Below are positions 12,100 through 60,830 of a DNA stretch of 64,000 bases, in pieces. The notes under the pieces were generated by a model, which was not told where the DNA came from, ran no database searches, and worked only from the letters and a program-made list of their open reading frames with translations. Source of the DNA: Octopus vulgaris (Eukaryota); NCBI GenBank assembly GCA_951406725.2, contig OX597819.1, positions 65,224,001 to 65,288,000 of the forward strand, given 5' to 3'. Both the position numbers and the translations under genes were made by a program. How positions within the stretch are numbered: the first letter of the stretch is position 1; every line of letters begins with the position of its first letter.

Positions 12100-12515
12100 T
12101 ATATATACCAATTAAGGACTGAACACGAAAAAGTGGACAGTCAACATGCTAGATATAGACGTCAAATCGCCATTCTCCACAAAGATTTTGTTCTCAAATA
12201 AAAATAAAATTCAGCACGACCTAAAGCAATGGATGAGACAAAAGAAATATACGAAATGGAATAATCACCTACGTACCGTACAGTTTCAGCTATTAATATC
12301 ACAAGGATACCTGTAGCTTCGTCAGCGTAGTTTGTTATGAGAATAATCTGTTGTACTAGATGAAAAAACGGTACCGGAGTCCCGCATGCAAAAAGTACGA
12401 CCTATTACTTTCGGATGTATCTTTCAAAATCTTTGTGGAGAATGGCGATTTGACGTCTATATCTAGCATGTTGACTGTCCACTTTTTCGTGTTCAGTCCT
12501 TAATTGGTATATATA
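12100..12515. mobile_element. Foldback element with ~90-bp perfect inverted arms enclosing a hammerhead
   Basis: 12100-12190 is the reverse complement of 12425-12515. The right end runs into (TA)n. Confidence 0.8.
12269..12330 (-). ncRNA. Minimal type I hammerhead ribozyme
   Basis: CUACG-CUGACGA-AGCUA...UAGCU-GAAAC-UGUACG-GUA|CGUAG. Stems I and II pair perfectly and the core is intact. Confidence 0.8.
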
Positions 12516-12542
12516 TATATATATATATATATATATATATAT

Positions 12543-12785
12543 ACATTTATACATAGTAGGTCTTACAGCCGTTTCCAGGATATTTATAATATCCCTTCTC
12601 CGGAGACGGTGTGAGAGGATGGTTGAGTAATAGTTAAATCTATTTTCTTTCCTCCACCTCACTCTCTATTTTGTAACTTATGTAAATTAACTAGTACTTA
12701 ACCATCCTCTCACACTGTCTACGATGAAGGGATAAATTATATATATATCGTGGAAACAGCTGTATGACCTTCTATATATAAATGT
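12543..12785. mobile_element. Diverged foldback pair, each arm with a degenerate hammerhead (12560-12607 minus, 12717-12768 plus)
   Basis: Minus copy GUCU-CCGGAGA-AGGGAUA...UAUCCUG-GAAAC-GGCU-GUA-AGAC; plus copy GUCU-ACGAUGA-AGGGAUA...GAAACAGCUGUA-UGAC. Confidence 0.6.
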
Positions 12786-14124
12786 TCTAAAATCTGCACA
12801 TCCTTGTTTTTTTATATCACTACGAAAAAAACAATTTTTATTTTATACACACGCTGATATATGACCAATGTTGAACCCCTTATACGCATAATCACCGAAC
12901 CTGGAACTTAATTATGGTCTATCTATTGCACTTATTCAGCATTATCTGACACCTTTGGGTCTCAATGACACCATTATCTCTCATAACCTATATATATATA
13001 TATATACTCATAAATGCGTACAATACATACATACATTTCATACGTATAAACATATATATTAGCAGATCACCCATGCATTGTCTTTACAGCTTGCCATTTT
13101 ATAGAAAATTCTATAGGTAAAATATGGGCATACTATGTATATTTTGTCATATAAAAATGTACACATTTATTATTGTTAAGTCGGGATAGCAGGCTGCCAA
13201 ATCTGATCTGATGTGGAGCAGCTGCAACATACATCAGCAATCTAATCCTTAGACCCCTTTCAGAAAAAGACAATGTTTTATTAGTGAAGCTTCATTGAAT
13301 GTCATACAAGAAAGTAATCAAACAGTATTCATTATATATTTGGCTCCGGGCCATTTGTGGAAGGAACACTATACATTACATCCTTCTCTCCCTCTTTAGA
13401 TATATATACGCATGCATGTACATAAATATATATGTATATATATATATTGAGCGTGAATGTTTGTGTGGGGATATGAATGCGTGCGTGCATGCATATGTTT
13501 GTCTGTGCGTATATTAATTAATATCGATTGATTGCATTATTAACATCAAAGAATAATGATATCTATTATATGCGTTCAGTAAAAATTTTCTCCCGTGTGC
13601 ATCCAAAAGTAGGCATGCATACAATGTAATCCATAAAATCATGTGATCGTGTGCGCGCTTGTTTATGTGTTTTGCAAGAGAATGTTAAAATAAACCTATT
13701 CAATAATAGCCGGTTTCTTATTGCTTTCTGCATGCAGAATATACTGCTGCCCCCTGTAGTTTCCCAATACAAAACATTTCGAAAAGGGAATCACGTCAGA
13801 GGTCATTCACTAAAAGAATTACGGACATGAGTGATCTTAATTATTGGGACCGTTTAAAAACATTGAAACTCTATAATTTCCAGCACTGCTGTGAGCGATG
13901 CATCATTTGCACAATGTGGAGAATATGTCACCAGAATTGTCCAAATGACTTCAACATTAGCTTCAGATTCAACCAAGGCTAGGACCACGAGCCATAAGTC
14001 CCCTATCCAATTCAGGAACACAACACAGAAATACACAGCAACATAATTTTCCTCAACAGGCTCTGCCCTATTTAGCATTATACTGAAACAGAAGAAAGTG
14101 AAAAGGATCCCATTACTTTTAAAC

Positions 14125-14378
14125 AGAGTTCAATTCCCGGCGCCGCGTTGTGTCCTTGAGCAAGACACTTTATTTCACGTTGCTTCAGTTCACTCAGCTG
14201 GCAAAAATGAGTTGTACCTGTATTTCAAAGGGCCGGCCTTGTCACACTCTGTGTCACGATGATTCTTCCTGAGAACAACGTTAAGGGTACACGTGTCTGT
14301 GGATTGCTCAGTCACTTGCAAGCTGTTCCGTTGATTGTATCAGCTGAGACTGTCACCGTCGTAACCGACAGAGGGCTC
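14125..14378 (+). mobile_element. SINE family B, 5' truncated
   Basis: Matches 59830-60100. Confidence 0.8.
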
Positions 14379-15486
14379 CTATATATATATATATATATAT
14401 ATATATATATATATATATATATATATATATATATATGTATGTATGTATGTATGTATGTATGTATATATGTATATATGTATATATGTATATATGTATGTAT
14501 GTATATATGTATATATGTATGTATATATGTATATATGTATATATGTATGTATATATAAATATATATATATATATATATATATATATATATATATATATAT
14601 ATATATACACGCATAAACGTACATACATCCATAACTCGATACGCAGTGTTACTAACAGTTCAACGACAGATGTGTACATTCATTTTTAAACATGCTGCTG
14701 TAGTTTTGAACTTAAGATGCCGTTGGTGTGGGAGATTTCAGTGACACAAGCAAACTCTTTGTCTTCATAGGTATTGTTTGGAAAGTAACAAAAACGCAAC
14801 CTCTATATCACTCATCATGAGGTATGATTAAGCTGGTCCGTCGATCACTTGAAGCTAAGCCGAAGCATTTGTTCATAAACTTAGAAATAGCTGCAAATAT
14901 ATTCCTTACAGAGTGCGGAGGATTGCATTTCTGCAATTCATTTCGTGTAAGCACAGATAGCAAGGAATATCAAAATAAAAGTTCCTACATTTACGAAGGA
15001 CATTCACTCATTGATTTTATCTCCGATAAATACTTTTGTTTATAGACTTCGTGAGTAAAATGAAATCGAAGCTCGGTCCAAATAATTTCAGCAGTCTAGC
15101 AGTTACTCACGTTGTTGATGATTCGGGTTCTCCATTGGCAGATAACTCCTCGTTCATTTGGTACTAAACAGCAACATTTGTCCTACTTTCTAGAAAATAG
15201 CGTATCGCTCTATCAGCCTGTTACGCTATTTCTATTTCTCCCAGTATATCTTTATGTCTATAAAGAGGGAACGCCTCTCCGTGGATAATCCTCACTAATA
15301 ACACCTCTCTTACTCTTTCTTCTTTCTAATTACATGTCTTCCAAATGAGGAAAGCTGTCCCTATATTGAATCTCCTGTGTTCAAAAGATGCATAAATAAA
15401 TATATTTGTTTTTTTTTGTGTGTTTGAACATACATAAATATATATATCTGTGTATTAAATTATGCACATATGTATGTATTGAAGTA

Positions 15487-59113: not shown

Positions 59114-59329
59114 GGCGACGAGCTGGCAGAAACGTTAGCATGCCGGGCGAAATGCTTAGCAGAATTCCGTCTGTCTTCACGTACTGAGTTCAAATTCCGC
59201 AGAGTTCGACTTTGCCTTTCATCCTTTCTAGATCGATAAATTAAGTACCAGTTGCGTACTGGGTTCGATCTAATAGACCGGCCCCCTCCGCAAAAAATTC
59301 CGGGCCTTCTGCCTAGAGTCTAAGAGAAT
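59114..59329 (+). mobile_element. SINE family D with Nin-like central domain (other copies near 8632-8830, 10650-10780, 11620-11715, 42700-42875, 56270-56460, 56590-56730, 58590-59080, 60425-60570)
   Basis: GAGCTGGCAGAAACGTTAGC...GAGTTCAAATTCCG...GCCTTTCATCCTTTC..GATAAATTAAGTACCAG. Confidence 0.75.
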
Positions 59330-59776
59330 TTTAAATTCTGTAGGTATTCTAATCCTCTCTAGTTTCAACATAAACCTACTGTTAGGGTCCTGAAAAACTC
59401 TGACAGTATATACATTTTTTGACAAGGAATGATAAAAACGATAACCTAAACAAGGATAGAATCTTTAGTAAATATGGGAAGCCGAACATTAATAAATACT
59501 GTGACATTAATGCTAGTATACTTCTTGCAAAACCTAATTAATTTGACAATCAGTTAAGATGTCTCACCTAAAGAGAAGCCTCTATGATTTTAAAGGATCA
59601 GATTTCCATTTTGGCAAACAGACCTGCCTGTTGTTTTATAAACTCCACTAAGGCAAAGACTGGGTTAGTAGCTAAAAAATCAAAAAGCAACAAAAAATAT
59701 ACGAAAACAAATGGTTATCATTAACAATAAAGTGCATAGAAATCATAGTATTAGGCACAGACGTAGGAGTGTGGTA

Positions 59777-60110
59777 GTGAGGGCGCGTGGCTTAGTGGTT
59801 AGGGCATTCGGCTCATGATCGTAAGGTTGTGAGTTCGATTCCCGGCGACGCGTTGTGTCCTTGAGCAAGACACTTTATTTCACGTTGCTCCAGTCCACTC
59901 AGCTGGCAAAAATGAGTTGTACTTGTATTTCAAAGGGTCAGCCTTGTCACTCTCTGTGTCACGCTGATTATCCCCGAGAACTACGTTAAGGGTACACGTG
60001 TCTGTGGAATGCTCAGCCATTTGCACGTTAATTTCACGAGCAAGCTGTTCCGTTGATCGTATCAGCTGGGACCCTCGTCGTCGTAACCGGCGGAGTCTTT
60101 TAAGTCTTTA
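59777..60110 (+). mobile_element. tRNA-derived SINE family B, full length, with 12-bp target-site duplication
   Basis: A box TGGCTTAGTGG, B box AGTTCGATTCC, GTGTCCTTGAGCAAGACACTT core; AGGAGTGTGGTA at 59765-59776 and 60111-60122. Confidence 0.85.
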
Positions 60111-60624
60111 AGGAGTGTGGTAACAAGCTTACTTCCCAGACAGATGCTGCTGTGTTTACGTCCCCGTAACTTAGCGGTTCTGTAAGAGAGACCAATAGAA
60201 TAAGTACTAGGCTCCCCCAAAAAGTCCTGGGTTCGATTTGCTCGAGTAAAGGCAGTGCATTAGTATGGCCGCAGCAAAGTGACTGAAGCTAGTAAAAGAG
60301 TAAATACATACATACATCATATATATATGACCGATGGAATGCATCTAAACATTAGTGACTCGCTATTGTAACTATTCTGCAAGATCTCCGCCCTTATAGT
60401 AGTTAATATTGATTTTTTTTTTGTCGTGGTGCAAGACCAGGAATTCTAGGGTAGTGAATAAGTCGATTACATCAACTTATTTTAACTTATACCTATCTTA
60501 TCGAACCTGAAGAATGAAGACCAAAGTTGTCCCCGGCGGAATTTGAAATCAAAGGCATAATGACGGACAAAATAACATATTTAAATCTGTAAATATATAT
60601 ATCTATAATATATATATATATATA

Positions 60625-60830
60625 TTTAATCCAAACACGAAAGCACAAAAAACACAACAACGCGAGGACGTGAAACAAATATAGTATTATTGGACGCTCA
60701 GGAAAGAAGGAAAGAAGGAGGGTTTAACGTTTCGAGCGGAGCTCTTCGTCGGAAACATAGGAGAAGGAAAGATCCAGAGAAGGGAAGACAGAGGAAAAAA
60801 ATCCCCAACGCTACGCACGTGGTTCTCAAT
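60625..60830 (-). mobile_element. Penelope-like pLTR fragment with minimal hammerhead-like motif (60722-60756)
   Basis: GUUU-CCGACGA-A-GAGC(UCC)GCUC-GAAAC-GUU|AAAC between (TA)n tracts; related truncated copy at 40460-40577. Confidence 0.55.

Follow-up and report, generated by a model that had tools for sequence, protein, structure and literature searches.

A stretch of Octopus vulgaris DNA comprising 64,000 nucleotides (nt) (assembly GCA_951406725.2, contig OX597819.1, positions 65,224,001 to 65,288,000 of the forward strand; hereafter the window) was found to carry numerous type I hammerhead-like motifs, whose interpretation as predicted self-cutting ribozyme sequences is supported by the analyses described below. 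The motifs belong to about nine families of two kinds, namely the 3′ ends of Penelope-like elements (PLEs) and non-coding tandem units of ~500 nt, and members of both kinds were probably put into (TA)n tracts by a reverse transcriptase (RT)/endonuclease of the Penelope type.

Hammerhead Motifs in the Window and in the Genome

The window, part of contig C6, is 33% GC, with simple repeats accounting for ~25% after masking. At every coordinate listed in an initial annotation a type I hammerhead-like motif was confirmed, giving 17 motifs with the first core base (C3) at 12325, 12603, 27626, 40576, 43325, 43817, 44308, 44800, 45291, 52400 and 60752 on the minus strand, and at 12721, 20300, 40219, 41366, 47183 and 52890 on the plus strand. 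A strict type I descriptor (intact core, helix I of at least 4 bp, helix II of at least 3 bp, A9-G12 of up to 90 nt) was satisfied by 6 of the 17, these being 12325 and the five copies of an array, as against none in 30 segment-wise dinucleotide shuffles in which microsatellites were kept in place; when one core mismatch was allowed, the window yielded 10 matches and the shuffles a mean of 1.7 (15 shuffles). The elements concerned, assigned to ten groups (F1 to F10), are as follows, with TA-type repeats, open reading frames (ORFs) and core changes indicated where relevant.

12017..12507, minus: F1 insertion with two arms, the unit being of retrozyme type and 508 nt long; the long 3′ end belongs to the minus arm, 12017-12428, and the short 3′ end to the inverted arm, 12425-12507; (TA)n on both sides
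12269..12330, minus: F1 type I hammerhead; core intact, 31 nt A9-G12, helix III near-palindromic
12560..12607, minus: F2 hammerhead of the left arm; decayed, with the core altered at two positions (U4C in the family consensus)
12717..12768, plus: F2 hammerhead, right arm; decayed, the arm reaching the long 3′ end at ~12989
20024..20655, plus: F3 insertion with two arms, unit length 465 nt; the hammerhead, 20295-20353, has an intact core and, in the window copy, a damaged helix II
27555..28876, minus: F5, 5′-truncated copy of an autonomous 3.43-kb Penelope-like element bearing motifs of the Hydra clade; flanked on each side by TA-type repeats
27593..27630, minus: F5 hammerhead, located in the 3′ terminal repeat; the window copy has an intact core, a helix II of 2 bp and a single mismatch in helix I
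28724..28876, minus: F5 GIY-YIG endonuclease, C-terminal 50 codons plus stop (CxxC, E, N, CxH); 96% identical to residues 662-711 of the F5 protein, P0001
39762..40415, plus: F4 partial tandem, homologue of F3; direct repeat 39762-39922/40255-40415, hammerhead 40213-40269 with G8C in the window copy
40459..40577, minus: F10 short copy truncated at the core; (TA)n replaces the 5′ strand of helix I
41157..41654, plus: F6 insertion with two arms, unit length 477 nt; short end at 41157, long end at 41654, hammerhead 41360-41423 with C3U in the window copy
42997..45300, minus: F7 array in which a 492-nt unit is repeated 4.7 times at 99% identity; no ORF exceeds 68 aa
43227-43333, 43719-43825, 44210-44316, 44702-44808 and 45193-45299, minus: intact hammerheads of the F7 array, with a 68-nt branched helix II
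47072..47305, plus: F8 short copy; minimal hammerhead 47179-47214 with an ACGU palindrome, an extra base after A9 and A6C (family mostly A6U)
52189..52438, minus: F9 left arm; hammerhead 52364-52404, G12A in the window copy
52852..53145, plus: F9 right arm, more decayed; motif 52886-52926, microsatellites occupying the centre between the arms
60625..60830, minus: F10 young copy, sharing 98-99% identity with many others and bounded on each side by (TA)n; the minimal hammerhead, 60722-60756, has U4C

The assembly searched amounts to 2.80 Gb, and an unbiased sample of it, consisting of 100 evenly spaced 10-kb stretches of C1-C28 (1 Mb), contained 41 strict motifs distributed over 27 stretches, as compared with 0-2 in eight shuffles. 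The corresponding genome-wide estimate of ~113,000 strict motifs (74,000-160,000; bootstrap 27-58 per Mb) bore out the very large count that the initial annotation had anticipated; with one mismatch allowed, the sample gave 91 matches and the shuffles 24. The hammerhead content of the window is typical of the genome rather than special. The 41 sample motifs formed 23 sequence clusters, 15 of them singletons, and none had type III topology. A9-G12 measured at least 45 nt in 16 of the 41, and helix III, for which the descriptor does not require palindromy, was perfectly palindromic in 25 of the 41 as against 10 of 131 shuffle matches.

The axolotl genome is about ten times larger than this one. 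The estimated count equals the 126,247 motifs of axolotl in a genome some ten times smaller, and with at least 23 families rather than two. The axolotl figure was published together with one of ~5,000 for mussel (PMC7229834), and corresponding values are ~9,000 for Xenopus, ~4,000 for coelacanth (PMC4209133) and 235 for giant squid (PMC6962438).

Adoption of the hammerhead fold carried a median energy cost of 2.4 kcal/mol for the sample motifs and 9.2 for the shuffle matches, while in six window motifs it lay 1.3-4.3 kcal/mol above the minimum. Contigs of three sequencing runs, which we guess to be RNA, cover the F7 unit, its ends, strand and level not being readable from contigs. Rfam gave no hammerhead match in the window at the gathering score and none at E<=10 in three motif regions; among the best 150 of 480 Rfam matches in the window there was likewise no hammerhead, microRNA matches driven by microsatellites being dominant. 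One source of such spurious microRNA matches is a near-perfect palindrome around a short (TA)n at 6345-6470. The octopus genome thus represents a rich natural collection of hammerhead variants to which standard annotation is blind.

Consensus Cores and Covariation

For each family, genome searches were queried with the motif region, the strict test in this case admitting a helix II of at least 2 bp, and the best-scoring copies were taken as family loci; copies identical to the window region were removed before consensus counts were made. The first-look candidates, which numbered from 70 (F9) to 2,870 (F5 protein query), are not copy numbers. Where about eight unrelated families had been proposed, the existence of several stood but their number and independence required revision: there are ten groups, of which about nine are independent, the motifs at 20295 (F3) and 40214 (F4) being homologous (69% over 183 nt). 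Those at 40550 and 60722 constitute the single family F10.

The consensus core, CUGANGA / GAAA / UH, was intact among genome copies in seven of the ten groups, with one substitution in the other three (U4C in two, A6U/C in one), so that the lack of a core in the family consensuses, which had been named as grounds for rejecting the original proposal, was not observed. Strict copies were correspondingly frequent in most of the seven groups with an intact consensus core (F1 11/13, F3 17/20, F4 6/17, F5 17/21, F6 13/20, F7 26/33, F9 4/16) and scarce in F2 (3/25, consensus U4C), F10 (0/8, U4C) and F8 (1/18, A6U/C). Most of the window motifs that fail the strict test are evidently decayed copies of families with an intact or one-substitution consensus core. 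A second F10 set of 27 motif matches included 16 with a C4 core otherwise intact and 6 with the standard U4 core. U4C cores recur in several families (F2, F10, L077, L086) and create CpG; standard-looking U4 copies could have arisen by CpG decay of a C4 source. An upstream walk extended the F10 family by ~240 nt, within which no ORF was found.

Alignment of F3 and F4 through their flanks demonstrated that 6 of 14 pairs had changed on both sides, including 4 of 5 in helix I, with the consensus core retained; sliding the partners as a control gave 0-1 double changes. This covariation represents one evolutionary contrast.

Non-Coding Tandem Units and Their Two Fixed Ends

Four groups recur as tandems with periods of 508 (F1), 465 (F3), 477 (F6) and 492 nt (F7), each unit containing one type I hammerhead. 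The longest open frame of F7 is 68 aa, and scans of upstream sense frames gave maxima of 144, 224 and 167 aa for F1, F3 and F6, respectively. Together with one coding PLE, these four non-coding groups substantiate the diverse community of PLEs and retrozymes that had been envisaged. F2, F8, F9 and F10 resemble short truncated ends, with at most two scattered tandem spacings.

The copies of F7 are 98-100% identical and dispersed over many chromosomes. Of 15 examined loci of 10 kb, picked for holding several units, 13 proved to be head-to-head, and in all 13 two-armed loci one arm ended near position 132 and the other near position 237, as counted from the predicted cut, each arm ending on (TA)n. 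The same rule of one long and one short end was followed in 7 of 8 rows of F1, 5 of 8 of F3, 10 of 11 of F6, 7 of 7 of F2 and 1 of 1 of F5, giving 43 of 48 rows overall, a total which includes the window's own copies and in which two F1 rows represent one insertion. This pattern corresponds to the Penelope 'tail' signature. The foldback elements of the initial annotation are therefore real, but as head-to-head arms of one insertion rather than as terminal inverted repeats: matching terminal inverted repeats of fixed extent, the hallmark of miniature inverted-repeat transposable elements (MITEs) and foldback transposons, were not found among arms that differ in end and length and can be multimeric.

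The mean number of substitutions separating two F7 units was 1.8 for units of the same arm, 2.3 for units of opposite arms and 4.9 for units of different loci. Among 102 variant calls, 14 were fixed in both arms (4 of them private to a locus), 6 were fixed where one arm was informative, 20 were partial and 62 were single. The variants shared between arms indicated that both arms derive from one haplotype, which was not always one perfectly uniform monomer. Periodic variants were recorded in the F7 arrays at L198 (period 4), L207 (period 2) and L201 (partly 3), and could record either multimeric circular templates or block duplications.

F5, the Coding Penelope-Like Element

The Penelope-like endonuclease tail noticed earlier at 28724-28875 is real, and is joined to the motif at 27584 within a single element, the window copy of which (27555-28876, minus strand) aligns over its full length, at 87-93% identity, to copies of a young 3.43-kb element. 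Open frames of 726-735 codons were present at six loci, and a tandem at L191 contained two ORFs and three hammerheads with a period of 3430, equivalent to one hammerhead per repeat. The protein P0001 (711-aa ORF) presumably carries, as judged by inspection, RT-like motifs including YRDD and a GIY-YIG-like C-terminus. RWK occurred in 6 of 7 ORF frames and DKT in all 7; the CxCX5C linker was intact in 1 of 7, the other six having F at the second cysteine. The 3′ ends fell into two classes ~70 nt apart, comprising 10 and 10 of 21 terminal ends, 5′ truncation and a tail at one end were observed, and inverted partners were common. F5 is a probable endonuclease-bearing (EN+) PLE with Hydra-clade motifs.

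Hydra-clade PLEs (Craig et al. 2021, PMC8557442) have in common with F5 the RWK and DKT motifs, a CxxC/E/N/CxH endonuclease end, a hammerhead, (TA)n insertion, an inverted 5′ copy and a tail at one end. They differ in being generally under 3 kb, as against 3.43 kb, and in having a tail of 30-40 nt, as against ~70 nt; a further point of difference is the CxCX5C linker, intact in 1 of 7 F5 ORFs.

The proposal that families be linked to autonomous PLEs could be carried through for one of the ten groups, F5, leaving nine without such a partner. Candidate links between an endonuclease tail and F8 (L278), a long-helix motif (L039) or L065 were ruled out, microsatellites intervening in each case and the DNA upstream of F8 at L278 not being common to other F8 copies. 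A second, different PLE-type ORF of 508 aa (P0002) lies directly upstream of an F5 copy (L194:1699-3225); it has weak RVT_1 and GIY-YIG matches and a cysteine-rich linker, and pieces 87-92% identical to it occur at L285 and L290.

Adjacency to (TA)n

A (TA) run of at least 12 nt was present within 300 nt on the 3′ side of 29 of 38 terminal sample motifs and on the 5′ side of 8 of 38, as compared with 13.4% of random unmasked positions. The variable 5′ truncation points also adjoined TA-type repeats, in 5 of 8 single-arm copies of F5 (one being the window copy) and 27 of 63 of F10, against a baseline of 1.8%, which suggests that the (TA)n targets were in place before insertion. The directional enrichment and the truncation points together uphold the earlier view of microsatellites as landing sites; no empty-site allele was seen. 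Very abundant repeats resembling short interspersed nuclear elements occur in the window at 41803-41964, 42018-42187 and 29058-29280, and were matched 172, 113 and 154 times, respectively, per Mb in the sample; one-sided (TA)n accompanies those at 41803-41964 and 42018-42187.

Proposed Mechanism and Alternative Explanations

In the mechanism proposed, a Penelope-type enzyme would nick both strands of a (TA)n tract, and reverse transcription would begin at two fixed internal RNA sites, one per nick. Joining of the two resultant complementary DNAs 5′ to 5′ would yield a foldback of two head-to-head arms, one ending long and the other short; an insertion of one arm would be seen as a lone truncated copy or as a direct array. 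Hammerhead cleavage would supply the template for the 500-nt units, either a circle or a homogeneous multimer, and would likely proceed via dimers paired by the palindromic helix III, and decay of old copies would leave degenerate motifs such as those in the window. A PLE protein has been shown to cut AT-rich DNA on both strands and to extend these from two sites within the RNA, by which the tail is defined (PMC11167929), and dimeric cleavage via palindromic helix III regions has been proposed (PMC4209133). The fuller reading, which may equally hold or fail, is that the non-coding arrays are written by Penelope-type enzymes, with one circular RNA primed from two fixed start sites, one per cut strand of (TA)n, and that ~100,000 intact motifs in dozens of families missed by Rfam, among them an undescribed type with long helix II and palindromic helix III, place this genome among the densest and most diverse animal loads. 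Were priming of one circular RNA from two fixed sites correct, the machinery and mechanism that move animal retrozymes would have been identified.

A number of results weigh against these interpretations. None of 11 motif regions folded better than shuffles (z 0.0 to -1.6), the minimum-energy fold of such regions was usually not the hammerhead, the core is altered in three groups, and cleavage failed in 8 of 9 Xenopus dimers (bioRxiv 10.64898/2026.07.22.740005). With two mismatches and a 2-bp helix II allowed, the window gave 49 matches and the shuffles 39.3 (4 shuffles), which is near chance, so that the weakest listed copies are supported by their families rather than by the sequence of the copies themselves; a similar motif rate in shuffles had been put forward as the refuting result, and it was encountered at this level while the strict and one-mismatch levels showed an excess. 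The two-end rule was obeyed in only 5 of 8 rows of F3, and the 20 partial F7 variants are at odds with a single monomeric circle having been copied. Strong one-sided adjacency to (TA)n, within 100 nt, was also seen for two of four control repeats lacking a hammerhead (63/172 and 49/113), so adjacency is not unique to these elements. P0001 had no Pfam match, nor any match when compared with PDB; no coding partner was found for nine of the ten groups; and no sequence homology was detected between the F5 3′ region and the non-coding units.

Part of this evidence would suit elements moved by the Penelope machinery with their ribozymes mostly as passengers, cleavage being weak or unnecessary and cores persisting through young sources. 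Young F10 copies with U4C, F8 with A6U/C and F5 with a 2-bp helix II are in keeping with it, as are reports that U4C and A6C lower hammerhead activity in vitro (PMC3088659) and that hammerhead mutants did not impair insertion in vitro (PMC11167929); the covariation of F3/F4 helices around an invariant core, and the occurrence of that core in 23 families with unrelated helices, nevertheless make it unlikely. The partial and periodic variants of some F7 arrays (L198, L207, L201) would alternatively follow if the tandem units were detached Penelope terminal repeats, of which only the first copy was retrotransposed, later ones arising in place through unequal crossover in the manner of satellites, a scenario already proposed (bioRxiv 10.64898/2026.07.22.740005); it is improbable for arms that are often both multimeric, share haplotypes and keep two fixed ends, and for arrays spread over many chromosomes at 98-100% identity. 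That all groups are truncated ends of autonomous PLEs with unsampled coding parts, there being no separate non-coding class, accords with the appearance of F2, F8, F9 and F10 and with the rarity that full-length copies can have, but we consider it distinctly improbable given that F1, F3, F6 and F7 recur as closed 465-508-nt tandems whose hammerheads are not separated by any ORF. The near-chance two-mismatch count and the silence of Rfam might be explained if the motifs had arisen by chance within foldback DNA transposons of MITE type, the genome being rich in AT and in microsatellites. Such an origin is refuted by the ~50-fold strict excess in the sample, the restoration of the core in family consensuses and the F3/F4 covariation, and the unequal arms of variable length also stand against it; its probability is negligible. 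Insertion by a Penelope-type enzyme accordingly remains the preferred explanation.

Relationship to Known Systems

Small PLE-associated hammerhead variants were reportedly described by Lunse et al. in 2017. The minimal hammerheads of metazoan PLEs (Cervera and de la Pena 2014, PMC4209133) resemble those described here in being of type I with an extra base after A9 and a palindromic helix III region, and in forming many consensus families per genome, mostly as single truncated copies, with opposite-strand pairs 100-700 bp apart. They number ~2,000-9,000 per genome, as against ~40 per Mb here, where in addition, unlike the elements of that source, many motifs have 25-68 nt between A9 and G12 and palindromes of 8-12 nt. 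Studies of the Anolis Poseidon element PAc in vitro (Frangieh et al. 2024, PMC11167929) demonstrated the cutting and extension of both AT-rich strands that we infer for the octopus elements, and two internal start sites downstream of the hammerhead that equal the genomic tail and are comparable with the two ends reported above; the PAc start sites are adjacent and show no strand preference, whereas those deduced here lie 70-150 nt apart, one per arm.

F1, F3, F6 and F7 share with metazoan retrozymes lacking long terminal repeats (PMC7229834; bioRxiv 10.64898/2026.07.22.740005) the organisation as non-coding tandems, one type I hammerhead per unit and low GC. Retrozymes self-pair when folded as circles (same sources), as would F7 (z -6.1) and F1 (z -3.3). 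The octopus units differ in their length of 465-508 nt and their long or branched helix II, and head-to-head arms with two fixed ends in (TA)n are undescribed in the available text of either source.

Earlier publications already cover hammerheads at the ends of PLEs, their pairing on opposite strands, the bias towards (TA)n, inverted 5′ copies, tails and tandem retrozymes. The literature searched, which comprised neither subscription papers nor supplements, yielded no cephalopod hammerhead load of such size, no long branched helix II form of type I in such elements and, for retrozyme arrays, no footprint of two ends; motifs of cephalopods, or variants with a long helix, may be listed in the supplements to the papers cited. 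The words 'ribozyme' and 'retrozyme' are absent from the main text of a 2026 octopus repeat annotation (PMC13282606). Published accounts leave open both the enzyme by which animal retrozymes are mobilised and the origin of their arrays, through insertion of multimers or through growth in place (PMC7229834; bioRxiv 10.64898/2026.07.22.740005). The octopus genome combines young arrays, bearing a Penelope two-start footprint and mappable ends, with young full-length ORFs, and the published in vitro PLE assay can therefore be used to address the identity of the retrozyme mover.

Further Features of the Window

Inverted-repeat pairs in which no hammerhead was detected occupy 35769-37092, 58917-59278, 48850-49492 and 31416-34368. 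An extra hammerhead candidate at 57732 on the plus strand has two core mismatches, a long near-palindromic helix III and a score of 5.8. At 51650-51805 there is a 77-bp tandem duplication, and the sequence at ~52000-52030 resembles the 3′ half of a decayed minimal hammerhead. A 321-bp direct repeat (45734-46054/46512-46822, 95% identical) contains CTGATGA at 45953 and 46721 without passing helices, and may be another decayed retroelement end.

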